Part shown: piece after piece, positions 37,779-59,941 of the stretch
Layout of the letters: every line of letters begins with the position of its first letter
How positions within the stretch are numbered: position 1 is the stretch's first letter
Notes under the pieces: model-generated
The model's input: the letters and a program-made list of their open reading frames with translations, nothing else
Database searches by the model: none
What the model was told of the DNA's origin: nothing
NCBI GenBank assembly: GCA_010405405.1
Contig: MU004233.1
Coordinates: 1,439,122 to 1,503,121 of the forward strand
Origin: Microthyrium microscopicum
Taxonomy: Eukaryota
Length of the DNA: 64,000 nucleotides
Reading direction: 5' to 3'
Made by a program: the position numbers and the translations under genes

Positions 37779-40700
37779 TTATACAAGGGGTGAAGATAGT
37801 GCTGCCAAGGACGGTCTACCTGGCACCTCCATCTCCATCGCCATCCTCGCCAAATCAGTAGGTCTTCTTTGAAGAGCAAACATCTTTGGCTGGCGGTCCA
37901 TGCCCGACAACATCTCCAAGGACCCCTCATGATCCCCAACATGGCCTTGCTCTCCCACTGAATCCTGGCCTGCATTAGAGACCAAGGTATCAGTCGACGC
38001 ATGTGGCCGATAATGAGCTGGTAGAATATCCAGTGACTTCATAGACAACGATGCTCCAAGAAGTTCTAGATCCAGAGATTTGATTACGCTATTGCGTAAC
38101 TCGCTGAGTGATTCGAGCTTTCTTGTTTCTGGTGCATCCACTCCTAATAGTTCGCGACATCTGTTTTCAGCCCATGATATCATATCGCCTAGTATTCGCA
38201 TGCCTGTTTCAGAGTGGTTTCCAGACTTTTTGAGTTCAAGCATTATTCGAATCTTTGATTCCACAGCCTTAAATGCGATACCGAAGCGATCTTTGTGCTT
38301 CTCCTTGAAGAGCTCAAACAACGATTTGTAGAGCTCCTGGTAGTGTGTAGCTGCTGCAAAATCACCGAGCCTGAGTGAAGTCAAGCTTCGGTGTAGAAAG
38401 AATGCATATATTGACCAGTTCCCTTGAACGATAATTGGCTCGCCCATTGGCCTATCTACTGGGTCTTCGTCTTCGTCTTCAGCTTCATCCCAGGTTGCCA
38501 GATGATGACGTTGAGGTGTGTCTTTCTTCTTCAACCTGTTGCATACCTCCTGGGCCAAGGAAGCATACGTGTGCTTGCTGTCGAGAGGAGGCTCAGTGAT
38601 CTCCTCTAACCCAGTTCCAAAACAGTTCAGCAGATCAAGCATGATGCTAGTGGATGTCTCTACCATTTCAATATCGTCTATTGAATGACGGAAAACCAGT
38701 CGATTATTCAACTCCAGCGCGTTGGGATTTTCCAGTTGCGAGATAACTCGTTCAGCTTCCCTAGGATCTCGCAGTCCAACGTTTATCAAGTTCGCGAGAT
38801 CCCTAACCCAGGCGCGCTTATTGGCGACGGTCATCACATCACGATCTTTGACCATGTCGACAATCTTTCGAGTCAATTCGACTGCTTCAGTGAAGCGCTT
38901 TTGGGCTACCAGAATTTGGCGGAGACAAGTGAGCATTTCAATGTCAAAGTTGCGCACTGTGATGTCTTTCGTTGCATTGATGCACTCTTTAATCGACTTC
39001 TCTGCCAGGTCAAGATCGCCTTTCTTCAGAAGTAGTTCGCAATACCAGTATTTCCATTCCCAATAAGTCCAGTGTTCCGGATTCTTCCTGCTCTCGCAAA
39101 TACGTAGACCTTGGAGATGTGTCTCGATAGCTTCTTCAATTTTCGATTGCTTCATCAACGAATTGCGCAGTTGGCCCAGCATATACAAATCGCTGTCTTC
39201 TCTGGGCGGATAGTCTCTGGTGTTTTTGATACACTCACGAATCAGGTCCTCAGCTTCCACATACTTGCCCTGGTCTTGAAGCAGCTCAGCAAGCTCTTGT
39301 TGTGTGGCAAAGTATGTAAAGTTCTCTTTTCCAAGCTCCTTTTCGACCAGATAGAGAAGCTCAGTGACCATGTTGCCTTTTTGACCAACATGATCTGTCA
39401 TTGAATTTGCGAGAATCCACATCCGCCAGTTCCACTTCGTACTGCCTTGCTTCACATCCTTACTCTTAGTACCAGCTTTGCAAACACGCTCGAGAATTTT
39501 CGCAGACTCCTCGAGTGTCTCTGGCTCATCCAGCTCCCAAAGACTGATCGCAAGTTCAAGAGCATATTGCTCCCATAAGGAATTCGCCTCCTCCCACATA
39601 CTCCACTCTGTATCATCATCGTCATCCCTCTCTTCAAGATCAGTTGGTTTTCGTCCGGCTCTCTCCTCTTCAGCCATCATAGCCTCAAGCTTATTGTAAC
39701 ATTCGCGTGTTACTCTCGCAACTTCTTCATATTTGTACGTGTCCACTCCCATAGATATACCCACCAACAGCACCTCCAGATACTCTAGGCTTTCTGAACC
39801 ATACTTTTCCGCAAAGTGCTTCTCCAAACTCTGACCACGCTCAAAAGCGCCGAGATGATTCCCGACAAACGCCATATCGTTCAATATCCGCTCTGCCACC
39901 CACCCATGTATCCTTGACTTTAGCACGCCCGGCCTTGCATCACAGACTCGGAGCAGCCATTCATATATCACCAGCGCTCGATCAAAGAGATTCGCATCAG
40001 TCAAAAACAATCCGAGACATAGTTCCGCGCACGCCACGTCCTTGTCAATATTGGGCATGAGAGTTGGCGCCGGTGGTAGGGCGTCTGTATCATCGCCCAT
40101 GTAGCCAATCAGACGGCGCTCATATTGTGATAGGTGCTGGAGGAAGGCGTTTTTGCGAGCAACGGGGATACGGAAAGTGAGTCCAAGAAGCCAGGTAGTA
40201 ACGTGGTATTCTGCGCAGTTCTGAGCCATGATCGCGCTGAATGTGCGGAAGGCTGTTTGGCGAGCGGTGGGATCTGTGGGGCGGAGACGGAGCCAGTCGC
40301 TCACGAGAGGATGGAGGGCAAGTTGGAGATTGCCTTGTGTGGAGGTTTTGCTGCTGTTCGCAGACTTGAGCTTTGGCTTGGTAGCTGTGGTGTTGGGAGT
40401 TGAGGAATCGTCCGAGGTCGTTGTGCGTGAGAAGCCGGTGATCAGGGAGAGTTTGCGGAGACGCATGGCCCAGTCGCGAAATTTCTTGCTGCTCCAGGTA
40501 CCGGAGGAGTCTTGGAAGAGCGTGAACCATGGAGGGTGGAGGGTGGGATCTGGGTTTCGGAGGAGGTATATGCGGAAGAGATCTTCTGGTATGCTTTCAG
40601 GGTGGAAGAAACCTAGCACACTGAGGAATTCGACAATCTTCTTGCCATCATCTGTTTCTAGCGGTAGTCGTGACAATGACAACTCCCATGTGGAAAATAC

Positions 40701-41951
40701 GGATTTGGCGTGCTCTCGTTGACTCTCTTTGGCTAGATCTAGATATTCCCACACAGCTGGTGTACTTTCCAATATATCAGTGGTTTCTTGTTCGAAGAAC
40801 TCGAGAAACTCATCAAGACCGATTTCTCCGTCGCTGTCGTGTATGTAAGCACCAGCTTGATCGATAGCTAGAGGTAAATATCCGAGCCTTCTGATGATGT
40901 CTTTGCCATTTGATAGATTATCTGGGGTTTCTTCCACTCCAGTTACATCGAACAGAAGATCTAAACCTTCGATTTCCAGCATACCATCAACCTTGATCTG
41001 TTTACCCAGTCGCCATGTATCTGGATCCCGGGTAGTGAACAATATTCGTCCTTGATCTGCAGCAGGGAAATACTCATGAACATTGCGGAATTGCTCAGGC
41101 TCGTCGTAATTGTCAAACACGAGTAGAAAAGACTCGCTCCAACTCTCCAAGACGCGCTTAACAAATTGTGCTCTTGCCTCATTGTCGATGAGGATCTGGC
41201 CTGGCTCTTTGAAAAGCTCCGCCAAATTGGCGAGGCTTTTGACCAACGAGCTTTCGGACGTGGCGTTTAACCACATCACTGCCTTGTATCTCTCCCGTCT
41301 CCAAGCACGATGGCAGTATTCAAGCGCGGTTTGTGTCTTTCCCTGACCGCCCATGCCCTGAAGAACAATAACTGGCGCCGTATGACCGGTGGCAGGCTCG
41401 TCCATAGAGGCGGAGAGCTCATTCAGCAAAGCCTCGCGCCCGACAAAGTGCGATACTTTCTTGTAGGGTATTCGGAATAGTTTACGCCCTTCAAGATGCC
41501 GGCCAGTACCTCCACTAGACGTCAAAGCTGCCACACTCATCCGCGCAGTCAAGTAGCCAGTAAGATAGATGACATCGCTCTGCAATTCTTCGCTAAGCTT
41601 CTCGACTTTTCGATCCTTGCCCAAGCTACGCACCGCAGCGACGAGTTTGGTGGTCGTGCTATCATCATCCTTGGGGAGATATTTGTCGATGATTTCATCT
41701 AAACTTTCCATGCGTCGTTTGAGACCAATGAGAAAATTCGAAAGCTCGGTGGCCGCATCGCTGTCGTTCTGCAGCCGGACCAGTGACTTGATGACCAGAT
41801 CCAGTCGATCGCCGGCATCTCGAAGCGTTGATGGAAGTTCGACTTGAGCGCTGGTGAAGAGACGAATGCGATGTCCGATTTTAAAGCCTATTTCAATCAG
41901 CTGTGCAAAGGAGCTTGCTATGCCCACAGCCGTTATGGGATCCAACACCAT
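37779..41951 (-). CDS. Fungal NLR-like STAND protein: N-terminal SesA/HeLo-like domain, NB-ARC, TPR-like repeats (intronless, 1390 aa)
   Basis: MVLDPITAVGIASSFAQLIEIG N-terminus; HFVGRE, Walker A GMGGQGKT, Walker B LLVFDNYD, ILFTTRD, GYLPLAIDQAGAYI, LHPLV (MHD-like); C-terminal QGKYVEAEDL/KGDLDLAEK/QKRFTEAVEL helical repeats. Confidence 0.9.
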   Translation of the reverse strand: MVLDPITAVGIASSFAQLIEIGFKIGHRIRLFTSAQVELPSTLRDAGDRLDLVIKSLVRLQNDSDAATELSNFLIGLKRRMESLDEIIDKYLPKDDDSTTTKLVAAVRSLGKDRKVEKLSEELQSDVIYLTGYLTARMSVAALTSSGGTGRHLEGRKLFRIPYKKVSHFVGREALLNELSASMDEPATGHTAPVIVLQGMGGQGKTQTALEYCHRAWRRERYKAVMWLNATSESSLVKSLANLAELFKEPGQILIDNEARAQFVKRVLESWSESFLLVFDNYDEPEQFRNVHEYFPAADQGRILFTTRDPDTWRLGKQIKVDGMLEIEGLDLLFDVTGVEETPDNLSNGKDIIRRLGYLPLAIDQAGAYIHDSDGEIGLDEFLEFFEQETTDILESTPAVWEYLDLAKESQREHAKSVFSTWELSLSRLPLETDDGKKIVEFLSVLGFFHPESIPEDLFRIYLLRNPDPTLHPPWFTLFQDSSGTWSSKKFRDWAMRLRKLSLITGFSRTTTSDDSSTPNTTATKPKLKSANSSKTSTQGNLQLALHPLVSDWLRLRPTDPTARQTAFRTFSAIMAQNCAEYHVTTWLLGLTFRIPVARKNAFLQHLSQYERRLIGYMGDDTDALPPAPTLMPNIDKDVACAELCLGLFLTDANLFDRALVIYEWLLRVCDARPGVLKSRIHGWVAERILNDMAFVGNHLGAFERGQSLEKHFAEKYGSESLEYLEVLLVGISMGVDTYKYEEVARVTRECYNKLEAMMAEEERAGRKPTDLEERDDDDDTEWSMWEEANSLWEQYALELAISLWELDEPETLEESAKILERVCKAGTKSKDVKQGSTKWNWRMWILANSMTDHVGQKGNMVTELLYLVEKELGKENFTYFATQQELAELLQDQGKYVEAEDLIRECIKNTRDYPPREDSDLYMLGQLRNSLMKQSKIEEAIETHLQGLRICESRKNPEHWTYWEWKYWYCELLLKKGDLDLAEKSIKECINATKDITVRNFDIEMLTCLRQILVAQKRFTEAVELTRKIVDMVKDRDVMTVANKRAWVRDLANLINVGLRDPREAERVISQLENPNALELNNRLVFRHSIDDIEMVETSTSIMLDLLNCFGTGLEEITEPPLDSKHTYASLAQEVCNRLKKKDTPQRHHLATWDEAEDEDEDPVDRPMGEPIIVQGNWSIYAFFLHRSLTSLRLGDFAAATHYQELYKSLFELFKEKHKDRFGIAFKAVESKIRIMLELKKSGNHSETGMRILGDMISWAENRCRELLGVDAPETRKLESLSELRNSVIKSLDLELLGASLSMKSLDILPAHYRPHASTDTLVSNAGQDSVGEQGHVGDHEGSLEMLSGMDRQPKMFALQRRPTDLARMAMEMEVPGRPSLAALSSPLV

Positions 41952-42961
41952 TTTGGAGGCCGTTCACTGAATGATGCAGTCAGTACTCTGCTGCTCCTTG
42001 CAGGAAGCGTAGAGAGCCAGTCGATAAGCGATCGTATGCGCTCTGGTTTGTAATGAAGGTTCCTTGGGCCTTGTTAATATATGGCAGGTTATCAACGTAT
42101 CCATGCTCTTTTTAACATTTCGTTCCTGAACCCGTACTTTTCTTGCGCTTTGCAGGTTGAAGGTGATGTTGGGCGTTTGCTGTCGTTGACGTTCCCCAAA
42201 TCTGCTCCCTGAAAGTGGCGTTCTTTAGCACCAATCTATATTTATCCCATTCGTTCAACCAATAGTATTCCTTGCACATTTGATATGCATGCAAGCATTT
42301 GATGTGTAGAGATCGGAAGAAGATCAATATGTTCTTCATGATCATAAAATTTGATGTCTGATCTGTTTGAGAACTACTTTGATGGTAAATAAAGGTTGTC
42401 AAAAGTTTCTAGATGTTAGACCACAAAACTATAGGACGTAAAGTCTATCCGTGTTTCATATATTGTCTCGTTAGGCTTCCATCTCATGGAATATGTTTAG
42501 CTATATATGACTAGAAGTTATTCTCTTAGTAAACTATGGACAAGATTGAGCCATTCAAGTCTTCCTGAGGACCCCAGCCAGGGGATTAACGCGATAGTGA
42601 AGATACATCAAACTTCTAGATCCAATCAAAAAAAGCATGTAAAAACAGAAATCCATAATGTCACCAAAACACATCCATAAGACATGAAAGCTCATCACAA
42701 TTGAGGAAATACTTTATCCAATCCAGTACTTCAAAAAAAGAGAAACCAAGTTCTCCAAAGGGCAAAAAACTACTTTCCGCTACCCCTTCCAAAGGCAGCG
42801 TGCCAACAGTGAAATCATAGACACATACAACAAACCAGAAGCTCAGCTCCGGATGCACCGTCCGATATTCTTAAATGTGTTGGACCATAGGACAACTCAC
42901 CCCCCACATGTTGTGGGAGGTTGGTTAGAATTAAACGTGCGAGTAAAACGCGACCCATTTA

Positions 42962-43368: not shown

Positions 43369-44535
<1,167 letters not shown>

Positions 44536-46078: not shown

Positions 46079-46719
46079 AGACCAAGTAGGTGGATGAAAG
46101 ACCGTGTGTCTGTTGGGTCAGCAGCGACGTTGTATTACTTACTACTTCTGAGCAAGGAACATATGTACCATATTAGATATGAAGCGAAGGGCCATCCATA
46201 CACTAATTGTTCTCGTCTGGGCGATGAATGCTAAGAAGCCCAAAATGTGCTTTCAAACACTCGGATAGACCGGTCACCAAAGACCGATGCCTTCGCCTGA
46301 TAGTGCTAGTAGTAACGATGCTGCATAAACTCTAATCACAAAACCTGGAAAAGCTGTCAGGTACGCATTGTTTAGGCCAATAACAACGGCAATACTGTAA
46401 TCGCTTGTGGTCTTTGGGAGAATAAGTCTGGGTTGGATGCTGCAAGTGCGGTGATAGTCGGAAAGTCCGTGACATGCCTGCTGTTAATTCGAGCTAGCGC
46501 CATGTGTCTTGTAACTTCGACCCATTATTCAACACATCCGTGATCTCGTACCGAATTTCCGAAAGATCTTTACCATCATCATATTTAGCCCACCATTCAT
46601 CGCCTATCCTTTCTACGCGATCTGATCGACCAACCAAGCGCTCTACGCCTGCTTTCCGCCCCTATCTGACGCGATCCCCCCCGACACGCCATCGGTCCTC
46701 CTCCAGCGCTTGATCCACC

Positions 46720-48471
46720 ATGGATCCAAACTTCGGCATGTATAACAACGGTCAGCAATGGAATGCGCAGGCGCAAAACATGCATCAGCAACAGCAACAA
46801 CAGCACCCACAGCAGCACCAACAGCAGCCGCAACAACATGGCCAAATGCCCCAGCAGTTTGCGCCTCAGTTCCAACAACAGGCCTCATTCGGCGGTGGTC
46901 CCGCGCACCATCCCAGTGCGGCTTTTCAGATGCAACAGGCACAACATCTTGCGATGCAGCAACAGCAACAGCACGCAGTCCAGCAACAACAGCAACAACA
47001 GCATGCCGCCCAGCAGCAACAGATGCAGCAACAGAGATGGAATGGCATGCACCCTGGGCAGCAGTTCCATCCCCAGATGAATGCTCAAGGCCATCCAGGC
47101 GGTATGATGCAAAGTCCTGGAGGTATGATGCAGCACCCTCAGCAAATGATGGGCCAACATCCAAATCCCCAACAGATGCAGCAATTGCAACAAGCGCAAG
47201 CCCAGGCGCAGGCTCATGCTCAGGCGCAAGCTCAAGCGCAAGCCCAGGCTCAGGCGCAGGCACAAGCCCAAGCTCAAAAAAGACCTTCGCTGGGACCTGG
47301 TATATATAAATCACTTCCTCCATCTGGATAGACCGCTAACATGTATTTGTACTGCAGGAACTCCTCAACAGGCTCACGCGATGTCGCATCCCCCAAGCGA
47401 CCAAAACCAACAACAGTACTACTCTAATGCGCCAGCATCGGAAAATACGCAATCGTCTTCAATGTCAAATTCTCGACAACAAACACCCACCAGGAATGCC
47501 TCTCCGTATGGAAGTGGAACTCCACATAACCAGCCAGCTGCGCCTACAAGCCAGCCCCAGCCTTCTACAAATCCTCTTTCAAACTCGAGACAAGCATCAC
47601 AATCGAATACTCCGCAACAACAAACCCCGACTTCTGCAAAAGCGCCTCCTTTGATGACCAAAAATCCTGCCACACCGGCTCAGTTAGTAGAACGTGTCGC
47701 GTTTATATTACCACTCAACACGATGTTGCTGAAAAAAGCTCAGGCTTTACAAGCGGAGGGAAAAGGCTGCTCGATGCATCAGATGAATCCAACGGAGCTG
47801 GCCAACCCGCCAGAGAAGGTCAAAGACTACGTTACGTATGTATTGGCAGATATTGCACTTAGCATACGCTAATCTACTCCAGGCTTATGCTCTGTTTGCA
47901 GTCTAACCTTCAATATATGTCTACATTTACCAACCCAGCGGCATCCCCCATACCCGGTCCGTCCCTCATGGTATGCACAGTGCAGGATTCAGAGCTATCC
48001 GAAAAGTATACCAAACTGCAGAGTCTGTTTCCGGGTTGGAAAGGTTTACCACCAGGTAAGTGCTCATTGGACAAATCCCTCACCATTTAGATCTGTCGCC
48101 CCTATGCAAATACACGCCGCTGACGTTTGATAGGACACAAATCATCCATGATGAGCCCCAAACAAGGCCAAAATCAACAACGGCCGGGGAGCCAAAGCTC
48201 TGCCCACCCACAAACCCAAGTGACGCCCCAACAAGAACAAGCGCAACTAGTCCAGCAGCAACAGCAACACGTCAATATGGCTCAACAACATCAACAGCAA
48301 TCTCCACATCCCAACGGAGCACAATTGCAGCCAAACAATCAAGCGCTTATGGCGCAACGTCAGTATCAAATGCAACAGCTACAGCAGCAGCACCAACAAA
48401 TGCAACAACAGCAAAGTATGCAAAATCCGCAGTTTTTCCAGCAACAACCGATTCAAGGCCCGCCTATGTAG
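46720..48471 (+). CDS. Gln-rich nuclear protein with a possible SS18/SSXT (Snf11-like) helical domain, multi-exon
   Basis: Poly-Q and (QA)n tracts; spliced segment ERVAFILPLNTMLLKKAQALQAEGKG...DYVTLMLCLQSNLQYMSTF resembles the SSXT pattern (L..N..L....Q..GK...Y...L..NL.Y). Confidence 0.7.
47191..47277 (+). repeat. Coding (Gln-Ala)n hexanucleotide repeat
   Basis: CAR-GCN units encoding QAQAQAQAHAQAQAQAQAQAQAQAQAQAQ. Confidence 0.9.
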
Positions 48472-49661
48472 AACATATCCAATGAGTCGCCGAGTTTCGA
48501 TCAATCGATGGATTCTACATACTCGTCACATTCTTCTTCTTCTGATGACTGGCGTGATAGGCCAACGAAATATCCGCCGCCATATGACCCGCCTGTATGG
48601 AATATGCCTGACTAGTCGTCAGGTGCTCGGCGGCGATATTCAGAAGAAAGAGCAGTGTCCCCGCTCACTGTTATTTTCGGACCAGTCTAATTCCCAGACC
48701 GGCCCAGTCATTGTCCCACTTGAACCGAAAGGACTCTTTGGCTGTGCAGATGAGACCCTGCACAAGCTTTGGGTCGCTGTATGGAGAGAACCATCTCTCC
48801 GACACTGTGCCAAGTCCGAATACACGAGATGGGCTCACACCACTTGTACCAAAATGGAGAGTTGTAATAATGAGAGCGTTCTGTCCAATTATGTACACAG
48901 CATGGGACATTACTTCGACGCGCCTGCAGTGAACATGAACCAAGTTACAACCTTTGATTCATGCGGGCTCTTCATATTGAGGCGGTGGAGAGGTGAACGA
49001 GCCATGTATATTATAAGTCTGTACGAACATCCATGAATATCATTCCAGAGCCATTCATTGATAATCCTCATGTTAGGATATGCGATGCCAGACATCAACT
49101 GCCAAGTTCTCTCCGCGTTGATTGCAAGCTTGATCTCGTCAATATTTCGTCAATTGTCTCATGGTCATATAGTTCGTCTTCATACCTAGTCGTTGTCTCC
49201 ATGGCTTTGCCGGCTGTGTCAATCCGTCGTTCGACAAACCGCGATGAGCTACATACACGAAAGTGCCTTCGTCTTTGTCTTATTCTCCGCCAGTACTGGC
49301 TACATCTGATGGTTATGTCTAACACCGCATGGGGTCACGTACTCTGCTGTAATCGATATATGCTACTCAACATCGAGTTCGCACAATTCTGGCACAATTC
49401 TGCCCGGACCGGTTCACAACCGGTTTTAAACCAGTCCTTCTCCATCGCCTTCAAAGGTTACTTGTCACCTGACTGTAAGGCGCACTAATCGTGCAAAGTT
49501 TTATCCACAACCCTCGATGCCTGTGGTGTTTACTTCGCTCTCCAACGCGTTTCCTTTGCCAACATCCATCGCGTCCTTTTCAACTCCGGTATTTGATCAA
49601 TTTTGGTCATTTCTGCATCTCGAGTCTACTTCAGCTTATTTTAGCAACCTCAGGTCTCAAA

Positions 49662-50810
49662 ATGTACGCGCCTCGCAGTCAACAACCACCAGCAGCCCGG
49701 TCCGAGACCAGCTCAGAACAAGAGCTGGGAAAGCTTTACTACAACTATAACCTGGATGCTTATGCCTACAATGACAAAGCACACGGCGATGTGTGGATGC
49801 GCATTCGCGTTTCTGGCCGCGAGCCCGAGCGTGTATCAGCCCGCTCCGGAAACACTCAGCTTACAATAGACGAACTCATGCTATCTGGTCCAGACTTTGG
49901 TATAGGTGGGGACACCTTGGGCTTGTGGGTGGGTGTCTCGCCTGTTGACGCACACTTGCATCGCTCAAAGGAAGGCAACGCGAAGCCATGCGCCAAGAAG
50001 TATTCAGTGAATCAGTGGATCAATGTGCAGTCTCCCGATTTCAATACTCTATCTCACGATCCAAACGCGAGACCTGTAGTCGCCGGCTGGTACCATGAGA
50101 TGCTACAGTTTCGCAAGCTCCTGCATCCCAACAGCAATGGGGTTTCCATGGCTGTGAGCGTGGGTGCCGAGGAAGTGTTCTTTGCTCCCCAATACCGTGA
50201 CGATCATGTCACCGGTCTTCCTAGCCGCAGGGCGGCGTGGAACGGCTTGGTGAAAAGTGCGTTGAGGCAACGCGGTCGGACAGCCAATGGACGAGATGCA
50301 GGCCGTACCACACTTAATGACCTAGAAGGTCTGGCAGATGAAGTTGCGGAACAGACGAACGACGAGGAAGACGACAACGAGGGTGAGGGTCAGACAGCCA
50401 TGTCTGACGCAGACAGTCGGCTAGATTTCACATCTATACGCCACCAGAACACCTCGCGTTCATACTCTCGAGAGTCTCGACGGAGCCACCACCAATTAAC
50501 ATCCAATGTTTCCCGTGATACGGTTCGACCTACGGGCGGTAGAGCAGGCACTGGAGGAAGCACATCAAGTGGAGCGGAAAGCAGAGTCGCGAGTGAATAT
50601 GCTACTCAGTCTCGCATGATCAGGGAGGAAAGACTCATCGCCCATGCTGATCGCCAGACTGGTGCTATGTCAAACGGCGACGAAGACAGAGAAGAAGAAG
50701 AGGAGAACGAAACAGAGGTGGTCATTCACATTTCATCCAAGTCTGTTGGCAAAATCTCCATTGTCAACTCGAGCAGCACAAAAACCAACTTCAAGATCAC
50801 GTTGGAGTAG
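49662..50810 (+). CDS. Hypothetical protein, tandem family copy 1 (382 aa, intronless)
   Basis: MYAPR start, LGKLYYNYNLDAY, LWVGVSP, EVFFAPQYRDD, GRTTLNDL, acidic then Arg/Ser-rich tracts, VSRDTV, IHISS. Confidence 0.85.
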   Translation: MYAPRSQQPPAARSETSSEQELGKLYYNYNLDAYAYNDKAHGDVWMRIRVSGREPERVSARSGNTQLTIDELMLSGPDFGIGGDTLGLWVGVSPVDAHLHRSKEGNAKPCAKKYSVNQWINVQSPDFNTLSHDPNARPVVAGWYHEMLQFRKLLHPNSNGVSMAVSVGAEEVFFAPQYRDDHVTGLPSRRAAWNGLVKSALRQRGRTANGRDAGRTTLNDLEGLADEVAEQTNDEEDDNEGEGQTAMSDADSRLDFTSIRHQNTSRSYSRESRRSHHQLTSNVSRDTVRPTGGRAGTGGSTSSGAESRVASEYATQSRMIREERLIAHADRQTGAMSNGDEDREEEEENETEVVIHISSKSVGKISIVNSSSTKTNFKITLE

Positions 50811-51565
50811 ATTCCGACTCGGTATCAGTCTCCTCGTGATGGACTCAGGTTTACTCTGTATAGGAACATCTTTTGTAAACGAAACCTGAATAGTCCATCC
50901 TGAATGCCAACGATTGACTTCATGATATATCTTCTCTACACTGACATTATCCACTGAGTACTGTCTGTTATGCCAAGGGAATCGTTAAATCTGTATTTTC
51001 ACTGCACTAAATTATCGTCAGTTTATTGCCTTATCAGAATGCTGACCTTCAAACATGACGACAGGAAGAAGGGCATGCTCTCATTATTTCTTTAACTATT
51101 TCATTCCTGTGTCGCCGTTGTCTTCGAACGCGCAACCGACAGACAACGAGAACGGCACGCCTACAGCAGCTTCTTCAGAAGATGCGATGGTAGTAGACGC
51201 TGCCTCCATAGCAGGGCGCCTTTTAGATGCTCAACCCGATAACGCTTTCACTTCTTTCGCTCTCAGTGTGGAAATTGCTCTGCATGAGTTTTCGAGTTGG
51301 TGACCGGCGTGTATGGACTTCATGGGGTGCCTACAGTAGGTACTAGAAAATCCGACTGAAGTACGCCACAATCCATTGCTTTTTCTATGGATCCTCATGA
51401 CTGGACGCGTCGCATAAAGGTATTTCCAAATCAATTCAACGACCACAATCATTGATCCATTTTCCTCTACCTCAAGACGGTGTATAACAATAAACACATT
51501 TACTCCTAGCACACCTAAAACACCAGTCGGCGCTGGAGATTGCAAATACTGGATCCTGCTATATC

Positions 51566-52987
51566 ATGTACGCGACTCGGTCCCCGCAGCAAGCGCAATT
51601 TAGACCTTCTGAACAACCAGACTTTGGCTCGCGACGGCAAGAGGCAGCGCTGGATTTTTCAAAATTATTCTACAACACCAACCTGGATGCATACAGGTGT
51701 GAGCAGAAGCCTCCTGGTGATGTCTGGCTCCGAGTTCGCCACGTAGGTAGACCTGATACCAATACCAACAAAACGATTCGAGACTACACGGCGCCTGCCC
51801 GTATAACTCCGACGCGCGCCGAACTTAATCTAGACAACACTGATGATCGATCGCGAGTATTATGGATTGGCATGTCGCCAGCAAGAGCCAAGGACCACAG
51901 CGCGCGATACTGGTGTCCAATCGAAAAGATTCATGTCAAACGATACAAACTCTCTGCTAATGAGTCACTGGAGTCGCGGATCAGGGATAAACCACACGAA
52001 ACCAACATACTGGATCCATGTAGCAAAGTGCTTCGGGTTGTGGCAACATTCACAGAATCGACCAAATCAGTGATATTTCGGGCTTTAGTAGAGCCGGACG
52101 CGGATGGTGTTTGCTGTGCTTTGAGGCTTTCGCTTGACGAGGTTTTCTTTGCGCCGGAATACCGCGACGATACAATTTCGAAGCTGGAGAAGCGCTCTGT
52201 TGTTTGGAAGCAGCTGGTCAACGCGGCAACACAACGATATGGCGGGCGAGTGGTGGCTGAGACGTTGGAGCGGCCTATTGTGGCTCTGGAGAAGCCGTCA
52301 CTCACCAGGAGAGCAGGGGAATATTTAACACTAGACGATTTCACGAATGTTTTGACTCCGCAGACCGAACATGATGAGTTCGCGGTAAAAAATACTGATA
52401 CCGAGGATGAAGACTATATTGAAGACGAAGACGATGAAGACGAGGAGGAACAGGCAGAAGATGAACAAGAGCAGGAGGCAGAAGGCGAACTCGAGTACAG
52501 TGCGATAGCACGACGTTTTAGTTCAGCTCGGAAACAAAAGTCGGCTTCGTCGTCCCGACTATTGCATAGCCCAAAGGTTTCCCGAGATGCTGTCAGCAAA
52601 AGAACCAGCAGAGAACGGAGGGTAACTAAAGAGCTTGGCCAAACCGGTGGAGGAAGCAGATCAAAGGGCTCACGGGGTGCCAGTACGGCAAGTCATCGCG
52701 AGAGCCTTCGCTCACTTCGTAGTCCTATGGACGAGCCCAGCGCCAGCCGTGAAAGAGAGGCCCAAGCAGAAGGACCTAACCGATCAGAAGTCCTGCAAGG
52801 TGATCATGGCGCCAATGGCACGATTGACCAAGAAACTACGGACGAACACCGTGAAGAAGCTGATATACAGGTACATGTCTCGGTCGGCGGCTCTTTGCTT
52901 ACTATCAGAGATGTGGAGTTTTTGATTCCGAGATATAATGGCGCTTCGACTGGGAGAAGACCAAGAATCAAGCTCACACATGATTGA
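51566..52987 (+). CDS. Hypothetical protein, tandem family copy 2 (473 aa, intronless)
   Basis: MYATR start, FSKLFYNTNLDAY, LWIGMSP, EVFFAPEYRDD, acidic tract, KVSRDAV, VHVSV. Confidence 0.88.
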   Translation: MYATRSPQQAQFRPSEQPDFGSRRQEAALDFSKLFYNTNLDAYRCEQKPPGDVWLRVRHVGRPDTNTNKTIRDYTAPARITPTRAELNLDNTDDRSRVLWIGMSPARAKDHSARYWCPIEKIHVKRYKLSANESLESRIRDKPHETNILDPCSKVLRVVATFTESTKSVIFRALVEPDADGVCCALRLSLDEVFFAPEYRDDTISKLEKRSVVWKQLVNAATQRYGGRVVAETLERPIVALEKPSLTRRAGEYLTLDDFTNVLTPQTEHDEFAVKNTDTEDEDYIEDEDDEDEEEQAEDEQEQEAEGELEYSAIARRFSSARKQKSASSSRLLHSPKVSRDAVSKRTSRERRVTKELGQTGGGSRSKGSRGASTASHRESLRSLRSPMDEPSASREREAQAEGPNRSEVLQGDHGANGTIDQETTDEHREEADIQVHVSVGGSLLTIRDVEFLIPRYNGASTGRRPRIKLTHD

Positions 52988-53431
52988 TTTCGAGGACGCG
53001 AGTTAGGCAAGACCGCCCACAGGACAACAAGATAGATGGGGCTCGTTGACGGCTTCTGCTTATAAGCTTTGTCTTCTTTCCTCCCATCTTCTCCGATACT
53101 ATCACGCAGTCAATATTCTCAGGCACGGTATGACCAACATATGATCCTCTTGTTTCTAGCCATAAGTTCCAAAGTGTGAGACTAAATCGTTATCAAGTTC
53201 TATTTCCATCTATCGCCTCTGTCAATATGATCACTTTCGATACTTATGCACCGGCCTACTAAGGCAAACGAGTCGCAAACTCGCCGCGTACAGCTAATAA
53301 AAGGGTTTACTTTTTGAGGAACTTGAAACAAATGACGGAGCGGACCCATTGCTCCATCTCATGTGGTTACTCAAAGTATCTAATATTGCTAAACTCACGT
53401 TCAATGGCTCTTTTAGGCATATATTTCGCCA

Positions 53432-53651
53432 TCACGAGTATATAGAGGACGAGGAAAAGCAGGAAGAATCCGAAAGTGAGCAAACCGGTGCCTCCACGAG
53501 ACGTAGCCGGCGACATTCTACATCTATCAGCCCACACAATATCCCAAGGTCAGAATCTCGTCGAAACACCCGCGGAATGGCACGTAGCGTGGCCCGCGGT
53601 GCTGTTCAGAAGACTGCTACCGGTCCATCATTCATTCAATCGGCTTCGTGA
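53432..53651 (+). pseudogene. Possible truncated remnant of the tandem family (acidic/basic region only)
   Basis: EYIEDEEKQEESESEQ then Arg/Ser-rich stretch and VARGAVQK, matching DYIEDED (copy 2), VARDAIQK (copy 3) and VARKAIQK (copy 4); N-terminal domain absent. Confidence 0.45.
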
Positions 53652-54104
53652 TATCCCTATTGTCAGATTTTGGCTGCGCAACCATAGTCACTTCAATCTC
53701 TGTTCAGGCTTTGGCTTCGGCAAGGAGAATGCGATGGCCGTGTGCCGACCGATGGGTCGAGGAAATACATGGGCTGCCAGGCTGCTTCTCGAGTGTTTGG
53801 CCTCCATTCAAAAGTCTAGAAATGTCGATTATTCATCGGACGTGCTGAAAAGTCAAGCATCTTCTCATTATCGAGTGCGGTGGGAGCGTGCCATTTAAAT
53901 ATTTTGTCGACCGGTTGGGAAGCTTGAATGGGAAAGGGGTACTAAAAGTGGGTACGCCACATCAAATTTGCTTGTCCCGTACCGCGTACAACCTCTCGCG
54001 TACACCATCTCCCTCTGATACTCTTGCTTTGCATTTACATCCATATCCTCGACACGACATTCTTCCATTAGTTGCCATCCCTTGCAAGAGCTCGAGTTAC
54101 TGCA

Positions 54105-55493
54105 ATGTACGCACCACGCATTCCAGGTCTACCCGCTACCTCACAGCGCAAGACAAATCTAACAACAGAGGAGTCTCCAAATCTCTCAAAATTATTCTAC
54201 AATTTCAATCTTGACGGCTACGCGTATCCAAAGGCGCCCGGCCATGAATGGATCCTAGTACGTCGAATAGGCCGTACGACCATCGATCCGCCGAAGGACA
54301 AGCCCGAATATGCGCTCTGGGTTGGAATGTCGCCCACGTTTGCGGCAGAGCATGCTTATGAACAAATGGTCCCCGGATCAGGAGGAAACAGGCGCAAGTT
54401 CAATATTAAACCTACCGGCAGAGGGGCATTGGAAGAGAAGTTACGCGAAAAGCCGGATGAGATTGTGGTTCTCGATCACGACCCACTCGCTGCAAAGGTA
54501 GTGGTGGGTCCATTCAAGAAGGGGGGACAGCTGCAGTATCGCAAGCTAGCCAACCCTACCGGCCCTGGGGGTCTATGCGAAGCTCTCACTGTGCATGCGT
54601 CTGAGGTTTTCTTTGCGCCTGAGTATCGAGACGACACGATTCGAAGACAAGATGGACGACCAGTAGTATGGAATGGCAAGGTCAAGGAGATATTGAACCA
54701 AGGTCGTCCGGATTGTCCTCCCACGCTGTCAGCTAGACAGAATGCTGGGCGTATTACGCTAAAGGATCTGGATTGCAGGGACAGTGAAGAGGAGGAGGGT
54801 GTTGACGATGCGGATGAAGGTTTTGAACACGCGAACGAGGTTACGGAGGAGGAAATCCCTCAGGATCGACGTTCTTCCGCTGCAGATAGCGAATATGAAG
54901 GGCTCGAAAATACAGAACATGAAGAAGAAAGTCTCCACCCGGATTCCGAAGGATTTGAGAGCAGAGAGTTTGAGACTGAAGAAGAGCCTAACAATCCAGT
55001 CCGACAAAATAGTCATGGTTTCCGCACGCCAGCTCGCAGAAGAACAGAGGTTTCCGCATCTCAAGCGCTACGACGCAGCGGACGTCATCCCAAGGTGGCC
55101 CGGGATGCTATTCAAAAGGCGTCAAGCAGCGCAGGTAAAAGAAAATCTGACAGACCAACCTTTCGTGGCCGAGCAAACAGAGATACCGAGATGCTCGAAC
55201 CTGTCATCACGACATCCAGTACAAGACGTGGCAGAGGACCTGGCAGATTATCTGGCAGTAAAAGCGATCAAAGAGGTAGTCAGCATGCAAATCAGCAGTC
55301 CATCACTAGCACCATGGCCGAGGGGGAAGCAGATGCAACCGCATCTAACACTCAGACTGATGAGGGACAAGAGCTATCGATTCATATTTCTTCGGAGGGA
55401 CCCGTCATCAACACTCCTCACTGGACGGCAACAATCGTTCGATCTGGTACTGACGCTGACGGCAAGAAGCCTCATTTCAGGATTACCTATTGA
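54105..55493 (+). CDS. Hypothetical protein, tandem family copy 3 (462 aa, intronless)
   Basis: MYAPR start, LSKLFYNFNLDGY, LWVGMSP, EVFFAPEYRDD, GRITLKDL, KVARDAIQK, IHISSEGPVINTPHWTATI. Confidence 0.88.
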   Translation: MYAPRIPGLPATSQRKTNLTTEESPNLSKLFYNFNLDGYAYPKAPGHEWILVRRIGRTTIDPPKDKPEYALWVGMSPTFAAEHAYEQMVPGSGGNRRKFNIKPTGRGALEEKLREKPDEIVVLDHDPLAAKVVVGPFKKGGQLQYRKLANPTGPGGLCEALTVHASEVFFAPEYRDDTIRRQDGRPVVWNGKVKEILNQGRPDCPPTLSARQNAGRITLKDLDCRDSEEEEGVDDADEGFEHANEVTEEEIPQDRRSSAADSEYEGLENTEHEEESLHPDSEGFESREFETEEEPNNPVRQNSHGFRTPARRRTEVSASQALRRSGRHPKVARDAIQKASSSAGKRKSDRPTFRGRANRDTEMLEPVITTSSTRRGRGPGRLSGSKSDQRGSQHANQQSITSTMAEGEADATASNTQTDEGQELSIHISSEGPVINTPHWTATIVRSGTDADGKKPHFRITY

Positions 55494-56413
55494 TGCCAAA
55501 AGGAAATAACTTCAATTTTCATGTATTCTAAACAGAGCCCGCGAGTAAATAAAGAGTCAAATGATGTTTTGACCATGAGATGCGATAGTAGATATCGTAG
55601 TCGATGGCAAAGATCGCACGCCATGGAAGCCAGACAAAATGTTTGCCAGTCTGATTAACGCTCAAATTCCAGACAATAAAATCGGTAGCCAACATCAAAA
55701 GACTGAATTTATCAAGGAGATCTGTATTCAATGATGCATCATAAAGAAGCGCTAGTATCTGCCTGACGCTGTATGACTGTAGACTACAGATACCAACCAT
55801 TGCACCATCGAATGCAGAGAAGCTGTCGCCATATAACCTTCGCTGCTATAACATCTTGATTCCAGCTTTGTTCGAAGAATAAAACAATAGAAATAACACT
55901 TAAGCTATTGCAGTTAGGTATTTGTGCCAGCCAGCACATATCATGGCCGGCTCAAAATGAGAAATGCTCCTGCTTGCTGCCAGGTCCATGAACGAGTCTT
56001 TTTTCGTAACTAAGTCAAACCCCCTTTGGATTTCTACTAAACAGTATGTGGTAACGGTTTTGATTGATACAGAGGGTGCTGATTGGAAGTGTGGCTTCCC
56101 CTTTTTGAAGGTCAACACCAAAAAAATCGCATCTAAGTCCATATGCTCAGCACGTGCTATACAGACTTGTCCAGATACTCAGTAAGTTCACAGTCAATGT
56201 TTTGGTCCGAGCGCGTCTTTGACCTACTTGCAATCGCCATTCTATTCTGCCACTCCCCGTTGCCTTTCATCACCACCACCACCATCATCGCCCTTCTCCA
56301 TCACTACTTCATATCGCCAACTGCGATAACAAACAGTCCGAGAGCAAAGCGCTATCATTTCCTCGACGCTACCTTGCCGCACCACGCATCATCCGCATAC
56401 CCTCATTGACAAC

Positions 56414-57610
56414 ATGTACGGTACTCGCCAGTCCACCGATCAGCCTGGCTCGCGACGAAACCAACCTACCATTCCTGACCTACCGAAATACTTCTACAAT
56501 CTCAATCTAGATGCGTATGCGTGCCCAGAAAAGCCGCCAGGGGATGTTCTGCTTCGAGTTCAGCGTTTTGGTCAGGCTCAGAAACAGCGTCCTTTGAGAA
56601 GCTGCGCGCCATCCCTTACCATTTCACCTTCTCCTGCCGAGCTCGACTACGCCGGCGCCGGTGAAGAAACCTTAGGTCTATGGGTTGGAATGACGCCTAG
56701 CAACGCAAAATCTCTCGGTAACATACGCCAGCAACGAGATAATTCGGCTCAAGGTGCTCTGACACCACTGATTCGTGATGATCCAGCCAGTATCTCCATT
56801 GTCCCCCGAGATCCTCAAGCTTTTCGAGTAGTGGTCTCCTTCAAAGAAAACGCGATTCGGTTCCACGCTCTCGTCGATCCCAACTCAAACAATCTCTGCG
56901 AGGCGATTCTTGTAACTCGCGCGGAGGTGTTCTTTGCGCCTGAGTATCGAGACGACATGACAACAACCTGGGTGAGACGCAAGATTACATGGCATGAGCG
57001 GCTGTCCGCTGCAATAACGTTAGTGCGAGCTTGGCGGCTAATAGGAATGCGCGACCCTGGCCGAAGAACACTGGACAGCTTGGATGGTGGTAGTCAAGAT
57101 GAGGATGACTTTGAAGATGCGCCCGACTATCTGGAAGATGAAGATGAAGGCGATCACGGACAGCAACATCTTGGTCGTCCCACAGACGAGGAAGACACGG
57201 ATTATCTTGACAATGAGGATGAAGATGACGAATTTGAAGGCCAGCCAATCCGTAGAAACCGCCTCACGTCTAGACGGTTTCTCAATTCAAGATCTCTGCC
57301 TGGACGAAGTCGAACGTCGACCAAAGTTGCGAGAAAGGCCATCCAAAAATCAACAAGTGCAAGTCGTAGAGGTAGTCGTCATGAAGCTCGGCTCGCAACT
57401 CGCAGCAGAGCCGCCGAGAACGTCATTGAGCTGGACGATCGATTTGTCGACAATGAGAATGACCACGTTGAGGATTTAGTGGAGAGTGAGGAGAAGGATA
57501 TTCAGCTTCAAATGTCAGAAGAAGGTCCTGTCATCACCACCAAAGACTGGACAATCACAGTTACTCGAAACAAGACGGGCAAAAAGGCTAACTTAAAGGT
57601 CATTGTTTAG
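56414..57610 (+). CDS. Hypothetical protein, tandem family copy 4 (398 aa, intronless)
   Basis: MYGTR start, LPKYFYNLNLDAY, LWVGMTP, EVFFAPEYRDD, GRRTLDSL, KVARKAIQK, LQMSEEGPVITTKDWTITV. Confidence 0.88.
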   Translation: MYGTRQSTDQPGSRRNQPTIPDLPKYFYNLNLDAYACPEKPPGDVLLRVQRFGQAQKQRPLRSCAPSLTISPSPAELDYAGAGEETLGLWVGMTPSNAKSLGNIRQQRDNSAQGALTPLIRDDPASISIVPRDPQAFRVVVSFKENAIRFHALVDPNSNNLCEAILVTRAEVFFAPEYRDDMTTTWVRRKITWHERLSAAITLVRAWRLIGMRDPGRRTLDSLDGGSQDEDDFEDAPDYLEDEDEGDHGQQHLGRPTDEEDTDYLDNEDEDDEFEGQPIRRNRLTSRRFLNSRSLPGRSRTSTKVARKAIQKSTSASRRGSRHEARLATRSRAAENVIELDDRFVDNENDHVEDLVESEEKDIQLQMSEEGPVITTKDWTITVTRNKTGKKANLKVIV

Positions 57611-59329
57611 TCCTTTGTTGCAGGCAGGGATAGAATAACAGGATGCTGATGCTACACAGGGTCAAACAGTAATCTGTCAGTTGTTGCTACTTTAAAGTAA
57701 TTGAATAAAGTCAGAAGTTTTGGTTTGGAAGAGAACACTTTGTGATATCATCTGATGTTCTCACTGGCGTTTTGACATAATAAGCCTGAAGGCTGAAATC
57801 CCAACGCTAAGACCTTGCATAAGGCAGGAACTTGCTTTAATATCAGATGGGCGTTAGTGGCGCTTGTACATTATTTTAACGACAGTAACGGCTCCCGTTA
57901 TTAGAGTGTATTTGAGACTTGTACAGAGTTTTACCTTTATGTCTTGATCGCATTGATAAGCTAATTATTTCTTCTCGCTGCATATTAGGCAAGATTTTTG
58001 TAAAGCCAGCTAGAAACTCGAAATATATAAGGCGTCGACAATGAATCTTAGATGACTAAAACCATTTTCAGCTATAGCTATATAAGCACGTACGAAACTT
58101 TTTAGGAAACTTAGATGAATCTCGACTTACTTTTTCAATCTCTTTTCTTCAACTTCTCTTTTCTTCAACTTGTCTGCTTCAACCTCTCCCACTCTTCAAT
58201 ATCATGGCAGAAAGTCGCAAAAACCAAGTACTGGAAACGATCCGCCAGCTCGCTCTACAACTCATAGCGATGGCCCTTCTGCCTCTTCTACTTCAATGCT
58301 AGAAGAAAATTCGACTAAAAGGTTCGTTGGTAACCGTTGCTCCTCTCTGTTTTGGAAGCCCCCCTCGCCGACATAAAACGGTCAAAAGTCCATCGAGTGC
58401 GATGGGAGCTTTAGTATATCTTATTGATTAGGGGATGTGATGGCAGTTATCCCATTTGATGGCAAACTGTGACATACGTCGTCCAGCTGTGAAAAATCGA
58501 CATTGGAGTTGAAGTTTTGTACGTAGTCAACGACTCAAGGTAACCTTGTACGGTAATCGAAGCAAGACGTGGCAGGGATATTGCTATACGCTAGCGTCAG
58601 CCTAATGGCACGGCAAGGAAACCAATTGATCGAATCAATTCGATCGCTATAATTAGACTGCATTGGTCTCGACTGCAGGTACCGCTTCATTAATTACAAG
58701 GCTGAAGAACCTGATACGTTAACGTCGAGCTCCTTGCCATTCAAACGTTCCACAAGAACCATGGCGCAATCCCATCGAGTGTGATGTATCCCATCGTAGC
58801 ATGTCGTGAATGAGTGCTGCTTTAGTTCCCAGCCCATTCGATGGGTGTAGGTGGTTTGCAAATTAAATACATCATCGGGCACCTAAAAACAAAGCATAGT
58901 GAAGATTAGGCTTCGCGTCTTTCTGCAGGGCGGCATTATTTTGTCCATCGGTTGTTTAACTTTCGAAGTTTAGCGTATGGTAGGATTGATTTGCTGCAAC
59001 CCAGACCGGCATGTCCAGAAATTTCCCTGTCGAAAATCATCTATATTAAGCAGTAAGATGACCCAATGGAGGCTGATGCCAGTAATGTGTGTCACTGGGT
59101 AGTACAAAGCCAATGGAAACTAGACTACCAATCTGAGTTTAGTCTTCACAACGTGCAACTTCACTTTGAAAACCATAATAAGTACCGCGTCTTCCCAAGT
59201 TCTAAGAATGATTTGACATATGAAGCACAACTTCAAATTCTCTACCTCGCCAAACTCTTTTTTGCCTAATCCGCCGACAGAAATACCTTTGAAGGTCGTC
59301 TCCACGTACTGAAATCAACTGCAAACAAA

Positions 59330-59941
59330 ATGAGATACTTCCTTACAGTGTCTCTTGTTCCACTTCTTTCATTTTTAGCAGTCGCAGCGCCAACAGCTCC
59401 AATTGTCACGCCAGTCCCTCTGTATCCTGGACAGTGTACAGGCTTTCCCAATTGGCAACGATCACCGGACGATATTACTGGAAGCTTCTATCTTACTCTC
59501 GATCAAGTTGACGACTCCAGCCTCAATGGATTGAGGAACAGCATCTCCGCCATCACTGGACCTGGTGGGCAAGGCTCCCGCGTCACATTCACTACCGAAA
59601 GAGACCTGGCTTTACCAGTCATGGCTTGTAAAAAGGGCGTCGTTGCCGAGAACTACGGCAGCGCTCCCTCACCAGTCACTTTCGAGGGAATTGGAACCAG
59701 TTACCAGGCTTACTACTCTACTGCCGGAGTCAACCTTCAAATTTACACCCACGAGATTGGTGGCGTTCAACAGGACGGCACTTTCATTGGAGTCAACAAT
59801 ATCACGACGTGGGGTTTGACGCTACAGAGTGGTACGATTGAGAACACCTACGACTATTACACAGCGAGACTACTAGGACCTGATAGCGGACCTCTTGGGG
59901 CAAGAGAAGTTACTGGCTTCGTTAAGCCAGTTGGACTGTGA
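59330..59941 (+). CDS. Secreted hypothetical protein (203 aa, beta-rich, 2 Cys)
   Basis: Signal peptide MRYFLTVSLVPLLSFLAVAAP; G/T/Y-rich mature region; intronless ORF. Confidence 0.75.
   Translation: MRYFLTVSLVPLLSFLAVAAPTAPIVTPVPLYPGQCTGFPNWQRSPDDITGSFYLTLDQVDDSSLNGLRNSISAITGPGGQGSRVTFTTERDLALPVMACKKGVVAENYGSAPSPVTFEGIGTSYQAYYSTAGVNLQIYTHEIGGVQQDGTFIGVNNITTWGLTLQSGTIENTYDYYTARLLGPDSGPLGAREVTGFVKPVGL

Follow-up and report, generated by a model that had tools for sequence, protein, structure and literature searches.

The 64,000-nucleotide stretch of the Microthyrium microscopicum genome analysed here (assembly GCA_010405405.1, contig MU004233.1, positions 1,439,122 to 1,503,121 of the forward strand; hereafter the window, numbered from its first letter) contains a tandem array of four paralogous genes without introns, encoding proteins that begin with a conserved domain for which no known family could be found. 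Open reading frames (ORFs) were called with the standard code and ATG starts, and the four genes are the following:

49662..50810, + strand: copy 1 (P0006), single-exon coding sequence, 382 aa; ORF list, recorded protein of this length, unbroken RNA contig
51566..52987, + strand: copy 2 (P0007), single-exon coding sequence, 473 aa; ORF list, recorded protein, unbroken RNA contig
54105..55493, + strand: copy 3 (P0001), single-exon coding sequence, 462 aa; recorded 462-aa protein at 100% identity and coverage, RNA contig
56414..57610, + strand: copy 4 (P0002), single-exon coding sequence, 398 aa; ORF list, recorded protein, RNA contig without joint

The starts of the four ORFs are spaced by 1904, 2539, and 2309 bases. 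The proteins recorded for the window match the ORF lengths exactly, and thus the gene callers had also read single-exon genes. Alignment of the four proteins along 516 columns revealed an overall identity of 29–37%, with 46 invariant columns, of which 40 fall within residues 1–218 of copy 1. All the features from which an earlier note on this DNA had described the array, four same-strand ORFs about 1.9–2.5 kb apart and a series of shared motifs, were present in this alignment: MY[AG][PT]R, K[LY][FY]YNxNLD[AG]Y, G[DH][VE][WL], LW[VI]G[MV][ST]P, [FY][RH]xLxxP, EVFFAP[EQ]YRDD, R...W, the TL.[DS][LF] end, and V[SA]R[DK][AT][VI]. Two spacings had to be corrected, as the DP/VV motif reads DP-x6-VV in copy 2 but DP-x4-VV in the other three, and the "G..TL" motif has one additional residue in copy 2.

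When the four N-terminal domains were made into a profile and compared with 1345 six-frame fragments of the window, only the four ORFs were retrieved (next best, E 0.48), and copy 3 used as query retrieved copy 4 at E 1.5e-22 from a database of 5.8 billion proteins. Judged from these comparisons, the likeness among the four copies is far beyond chance. At the G[DH] position, His was found in copy 3 and in the relatives P0003 to P0005, and Asp in copies 1, 2, and 4. In addition, the near-invariant Cys of the family is replaced by Ser in copy 1. Both differences may mark functional divergence among the paralogs.

Each of the proteins is built from a globular N-terminal domain (N-domain) of about 190 residues, a disordered linker of about 150 residues, and a C-terminal beta module of about 35 residues. 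The segments carrying the two conserved parts were located as follows (the tail profile was built from alignment columns 456–516):

49662..50330, + strand: N-terminal conserved domain, copy 1; alignment, profile match over residues 1–228, E 2.9e-97
51566..52348, + strand: N-terminal conserved domain, copy 2; alignment, profile match
54105..54776, + strand: N-terminal conserved domain, copy 3, modelled alone; model mf55fd75f07fd, mean predicted local distance difference test score (pLDDT) 78.8, predicted template modelling score (pTM) 0.74
56414..57088, + strand: N-terminal conserved domain, copy 4; full-length model, 10-residue blocks over residues 21–210 average pLDDT 73–97
50673..50807, + strand: C-terminal beta module, copy 1, residues 338–382; profile match E 4.1e-15
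52802..52984, + strand: C-terminal beta module, copy 2, residues 413–473; profile match E 1.3e-29
55320..55490, + strand: C-terminal beta module, copy 3, residues 406–462; profile match E 2.1e-31
57461..57607, + strand: C-terminal beta module, copy 4, residues 350–398; profile match E 3.2e-24, strands in the model

The model of the copy 3 N-domain, obtained with a 57-row alignment, presented strands at residues 49–55, 68–76, 130–134, 145–149, and 158–163, with a variable insertion separating strands 2 and 3, and a long C-terminal helix at 182–198. Copy 4 was modelled at full length (mean pLDDT 69.6, pTM 0.56); its linker residues 217–360 fell below pLDDT 50, and three strands followed at 364–368, 371–375, and 380–382, with pLDDT 70–77. 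Docking of residues 352–398 of this copy onto its residues 20–215 gave a score of 0.00 in two control-free runs, a result that bears neither way. The net charge of the linker per 30 aa reached a minimum of −18 and then a maximum of +9, in agreement with the acidic and basic tracts reported earlier, just as the strands at the end of copy 4 agree with the reported C-terminal beta segment. The acidic–basic–acidic succession of charge blocks was preserved in all five paralogs compared, the fifth being a protein encoded outside the window (P0020, see below), although the linker sequence itself drifts; one motif conserved in the linker is K-V-[SA]-R-[DK]-A. No stretch of 19 residues had more than 12 hydrophobic residues, and therefore neither a signal peptide nor a membrane span is indicated. 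Along the family, the conserved residues are Y39, W72, G74, D126, R131, C158, E167, E173, R175, D177, R185, and W189 in copy 3 numbering, the conserved aromatic residues of the N-domain being Y39, W72, F169, F170, and W189.

Transcription was analysed with the contigs of one public run, X1, whose type is recorded only as a guess. Of the words sampled from the region, 94% occur in this run, and the eight pieces placed on the window were all at least 99% alike to it. Between positions 44000 and 63900, its contigs showed nine joints of 47–203 bases with GT..AG or CT..AC ends, all of them in neighbouring genes and none inside the four ORFs; because of these nine intron-type joints, the run was treated as spliced RNA. 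Two contigs cover the array:

48132..55898, no strand assigned: jointless stretch of one spliced-RNA contig (9137 nt) over copies 1–3 and their spacers
56233..57661, no strand assigned: separate RNA contig of 1432 nt with copy 4, 181 nt upstream, and 51 nt downstream

As the contigs run unbroken over the four ORFs, the four genes are present in RNA and unspliced, and the array is intronless among intron-bearing neighbours, as had been noted from the sequence. Contigs of this kind show presence and splicing, and not level, strand, or transcript ends. The neighbour on the upstream side is a glutamine-rich gene (46643-48471, + strand) with CAG/CAA and CAAGCG-type repeats, in which the RNA contigs revealed three GT..AG introns, at 47298-47357, 47835-47883, and 48053-48132. 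The RNA contig of this gene continues unbroken into copies 1–3, which suggests read-through, overlapping transcripts, or a mere assembly join.

The age of the array was approached through pairwise Nei–Gojobori comparisons. Within the domain, the proportion of synonymous differences (pS) was 0.71–0.89, which is saturated, versus a proportion of nonsynonymous differences (pN) of 0.41–0.50. As pS was at or above saturation in most pairs, the dN/dS ratio could not be estimated. Amino acid identity was 34–42% in the domain, 19–33% in the linker, and 18–33% in the tail. The frames of 382–473 codons are intact and the conservation of the motifs mirrors the pattern of the whole family, which shows long-term purifying selection. 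Thus, where the earlier note had proposed old duplications under purifying selection, we found saturated pS, lower pN, intact frames, and RNA contigs over all four ORFs, and the four genes are old duplicates maintained under constraint. A stretch of 37 bases encoding EVFFAPEYRDD is 95% identical between copies 3 and 4 (54603-54639 vs 56924-56960), in a pair whose pS outside this likeness is 0.71, near saturation; it could correspond to a small gene-conversion tract or to constraint at the nucleotide level.

Regarding base composition, the four copies resemble the neighbouring genes, with GC contents of 0.51–0.53 overall and 0.46–0.54 at third codon positions (GC3). The indices of repeat-induced point mutation (RIP) were 0.54–0.70 for TpA/ApT and 1.14–1.25 for (CpA+TpG)/(ApC+GpT), also similar to those of the neighbours, and no RIP signature was detected in the four copies when judged against general thresholds. 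Between 46000 and 60000, all repeats belonged either to the three strongest coding motifs or to low-complexity sequence, and no terminal inverted repeats (TIRs) or long terminal repeats (LTRs) were detected there.

In order to place the N-domain, known families and folds were searched at the levels of sequence and structure. In Pfam, none of the four window proteins reached a gathering cut-off, none of 58 relatives matched any family at E ≤ 0.001, and at E ≤ 10 no family was matched by more than two of 57 members. Among the 177635 distinct sequences of the PDB, the best match was a designed protein at E 0.095. Neither of the two models had a Foldseek match at E ≤ 0.001 in the PDB, nor was any detected at this threshold among the viral structures of BFVD. 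The structural rows below significance were mostly small barrels, including the Tudor-like domain of PipX, the KOW domains of the Mtr4/Ski2 arch and of NusG, and KOW-type ribosomal proteins, as well as chromo, Tudor, and agenet domains; a possible likeness of the N-domain to SH3-like KOW/Tudor barrels comes from these weak rows, none of them at E ≤ 0.001. The acidic tract of copy 2 gave weak matches to YL1 (18.7 bits, E 0.002) and to DNA_pol_phi (E 0.0073), which do not reach the respective Pfam cut-offs of 29.2 and 27.6 bits, lie in low-complexity sequence, and concern one copy of the four; this likeness is compositional and not homology. The charge-block layout is similar to the one seen in many nuclear and nucleolar proteins.

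Two Atlas look-ups reached best scores of 0.84 and 0.85, below the 0.9 required. No transposase, integrase, or reverse-transcriptase domain appeared in the Pfam scans of the window proteins and their relatives. PHROG gave only two matches, both at E 0.0039 and for one of seven proteins, and PADLOC a single one, "E2", for one of seven (E 0.0044, 14.7 bits), this library being prokaryotic and hence a weak test for a fungus. Literature searches by the locus tags of the named relatives or by short motif strings found no paper, and the titles and opening parts of abstracts listed under the species name contained nothing on these genes. The domain had been called unrecognised in the earlier note, and so it stayed, with no Pfam family, PDB sequence relative, or fold match; the N-domain family is undescribed and appears well suited to become a family entry of its own.

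The family is nevertheless wider than the array. A profile search among 1.84 billion representatives recovered 205 relatives at E ≤ 0.001, 72 at E ≤ 1e-10, and 5 at E ≤ 1e-30, with lengths from 120 to 982 aa and with the domain at varying positions. The nearest named relatives were "hypothetical proteins" of the dothideomycete M. microscopicum itself. The named members belong to six genera in four classes of Pezizomycotina (ascomycetes), namely Microthyrium, Westerdykella, and Stemphylium; Cyphellophora; Chrysothrix; and Pyricularia, and among named records the family is restricted to this group. A second, alignment-based search gave nine matches with uninformative names. The domain was present in all 151 family proteins compared. 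Examples are Westerdykella ornata EI97DRAFT_477459 and Cyphellophora europaea HMPREF1541_07965, annotated as "hypothetical" or "uncharacterized", which have the N-domain and its motifs in common with the window copies. In contrast, the tails of other Pezizomycotina members are unlike the linker plus beta module of the array, and two subfamilies (18 and 17 representatives) have shared C-terminal modules of their own.

Within M. microscopicum, at least seven copies of the domain were counted, those beyond the window being taken from protein records only. One of them, P0020, has 524 aa and represents a fifth paralog, which shares its start, its linker motif, and its C-terminal module with the array proteins; it is encoded outside the window, on a contig equal in length to the one recorded for the window proteins. 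Among the 151 family proteins it was the only one outside the window with a tail of the window type (E 5.8e-15; next best, 0.023). A search with the tail of copy 3 (residues 330–462) retrieved the query alone, through a word index that limits its reach and among proteins of 254–809 aa. Two further proteins, P0008 and P0023, have consecutive locus tags and so form a second adjacent pair, with tails that differ from those in the window.

The tree was built with 134 of the 151 proteins, leaving out 17 with fewer than 150 profile positions. The four window copies formed one clade with a support of 93 in the Shimodaira–Hasegawa-like approximate likelihood ratio test (SH-aLRT), with no resolved inner order, and with end branches of 0.84–1.15 changes per column; no sequence of another species fell inside it among the 134 rows. 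P0008 and P0023 were nearest to this clade (support 82), and P0020 showed a long branch and an uncertain placement. In metagenomes, a scan with the relative P0021 found its own two contigs only, each with a single-copy, single-exon member and without a second family domain within 7.8 and 15.7 kb, and a scan with the alignment of the four domains gave 179 pattern matches, none of which was confirmed. The idea of a lineage-specific system has to be divided: the domain, spread over 205 representative clusters and, among the named ones, four ascomycete classes, is not specific to the lineage, whereas the subclade of the array and the architecture of its tails are.

From all these data, we read the locus, with about an even chance of being right in full, as an old tandem array, in a filamentous ascomycete, of four paralogous, transcribed, single-exon genes whose N-domain belongs to an uncharacterised family of Pezizomycotina and whose products would have a soluble binding or scaffold role. 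This last part, with soluble proteins that act inside the cell in binding or as scaffolds, is in itself a doubtful though credible proposal. Such a role, possibly on nucleic acid or chromatin, is suggested by the charge blocks, by the RG/AT-hook-like motifs of copy 3 and P0020, and by the weak likeness to barrels. In this scheme, conserved aromatic and charged residues would allow the small beta-rich N-domain to bind a ligand, either a peptide or nucleic acid/chromatin; contacts with nucleic acid or self-association would depend on the charged linker and the C-terminal module; and the paralogs would have diversified in specificity following duplication.

Several observations weigh against this interpretation. 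The RNA evidence consists of contigs of a single run with a type recorded as a guess, and one contig continues through the spacers of copies 1–3, so that separate transcripts are not demonstrated. A crude regular-expression scan of the four window copies detected no classical nuclear localisation signal (NLS) in their linkers or tails, the sole NLS-type match, K[KR]x[KR], being at residue 125 of copy 2, within the globular domain, and only copy 3 and P0020 had AT-hook-like RG motifs in their basic tracts. The nuclear or chromatin association proposed in the earlier note, to which the charge-block linker points, is speculation. The correlation of relative synonymous codon usage (RSCU) with the exons of neighbouring housekeeping genes was low in the four copies, 0.11–0.53 versus 0.45–0.80 in the comparison genes, six of which themselves belong to the reference set; weak expression or the biased composition of the tails could account for this. 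Finally, the many conserved charged residues and the near-invariant Cys would equally suit an enzyme.

An enzymatic N-domain of new or unrecognisably diverged fold, with the E-V-F-F-x-P-E-Y-R-D-D segment, Cys158, Asp126, Arg131, and Arg185 as putative active site and with tails that target or regulate it, seems somewhat unlikely to us. The density of conserved charged residues and the presence of the Cys in 53 of 57 aligned members fit it, and the first Atlas look-up listed clusters of ADP-ribosyltransferase type (Tox-ART-HYD1, Arr-ms, PARP) at 0.82. However, these scores are below 0.9, and a look-up with another family member, P0021, did not bring up the clusters again; the weak structural rows include no ADP-ribosyltransferase chain, which does not in itself exclude that family, and they point to no consistent class of enzyme fold. 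Moreover, no His is conserved along the family, Asp occupies the G[DH] position in every window copy but copy 3, and copy 1 carries Ser instead of the Cys.

A bolder proposal, in which the N-module is a new fold defining a class of readers or enzymes specific to Pezizomycotina, the array a lineage-specific diversifying expansion, and the tail a self-associating or signalling device, is unlikely; if true, it would represent a fungal system without a described counterpart. Decidedly unlikely is that the array constitutes a conflict locus, for allorecognition, defence, or drive, in which the paralogs would evolve fast through diversifying selection and perhaps act together with the following gene:

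37779-41963, − strand: NLR-type ORF of 1394 aa that combines an N-terminal SesA domain with an NB-ARC NTPase and TPR repeats; ORF and domain scan

The lineage-specific clade with its long end branches, into which no other species falls, the second adjacent pair in the same species, the short beta-strand pattern of the C-terminal module, and this NLR-type gene about 8 kb upstream are compatible with it, but only as circumstantial support. Three unrelated genes separate the NLR-type gene from the array, and its N-terminus is a SesA domain and not a short motif matching the tails. In fungi, amyloid signalling motifs of the HET-s, sigma, and PP types are short motifs common to the C-terminus of an effector and the N-terminus of an adjacent NLR, and the SesA domain does not point to a pairing of this kind. 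PADLOC gave no meaningful match, the member on the unrelated metagenomic contig is single-copy in a locus of 7.8–15.7 kb, and the pattern of ancient duplicates with pN below a saturated pS indicates constraint, positive selection not being detectable in this way. A conflict system, as the earlier note had suggested, thus found no direct support and is speculation.

The same note had considered the capture of a mobile-element or viral gene followed by local amplification, which we regard as very improbable. The lack of introns amid intron-bearing neighbours, the number of domain copies in the species, and the single-exon ORF of another family member would fit such an origin. Nevertheless, there are no TIRs or LTRs around the array, no transposase, integrase, or reverse-transcriptase domains, no viral structure at E ≤ 0.001, and in PHROG nothing beyond the two marginal matches; the GC and GC3 are those of the host neighbourhood and the RIP indices are unremarkable. 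This reading is likewise speculation, and nothing supports a mobile-element, viral, or defence origin. As for the idea that the ORFs are decaying or non-functional duplicates with residual conservation, for which the low RSCU correlation with housekeeping neighbours and the absence of a known function could be invoked, it is extremely improbable and already close to refuted, as the four frames have remained intact despite synonymous saturation, the conserved motifs agree with the family-wide pattern, and RNA contigs cover all four genes.

The four genes together with the fifth paralog and the second adjacent pair represent a natural diverged series with which important residues could be mapped. 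The word "new", as applied to the family, means undescribed and does not imply that a new biological system has been demonstrated. Fungal genomes often contain lineage-specific arrays of uncharacterised genes, and since in addition no function has been established here, the immediate surprise for a specialist would be moderate.

The other genes of the window include those for MCM, EMP70, and Mo25 proteins, an rRNA adenine dimethylase, and a TIM barrel of AP-endonuclease type. Downstream of the array, an ORF of 203 aa (59330-59941, + strand) without Pfam match presents a hydrophobic N-terminus that resembles a signal peptide, and the depth of RNA contigs is high at this position. Finally, one RNA contig has a CT..AC joint of 59 bases at 58071-58131, and hence a transcript of the minus strand is spliced in the interval that separates copy 4 from the next plus-strand gene.

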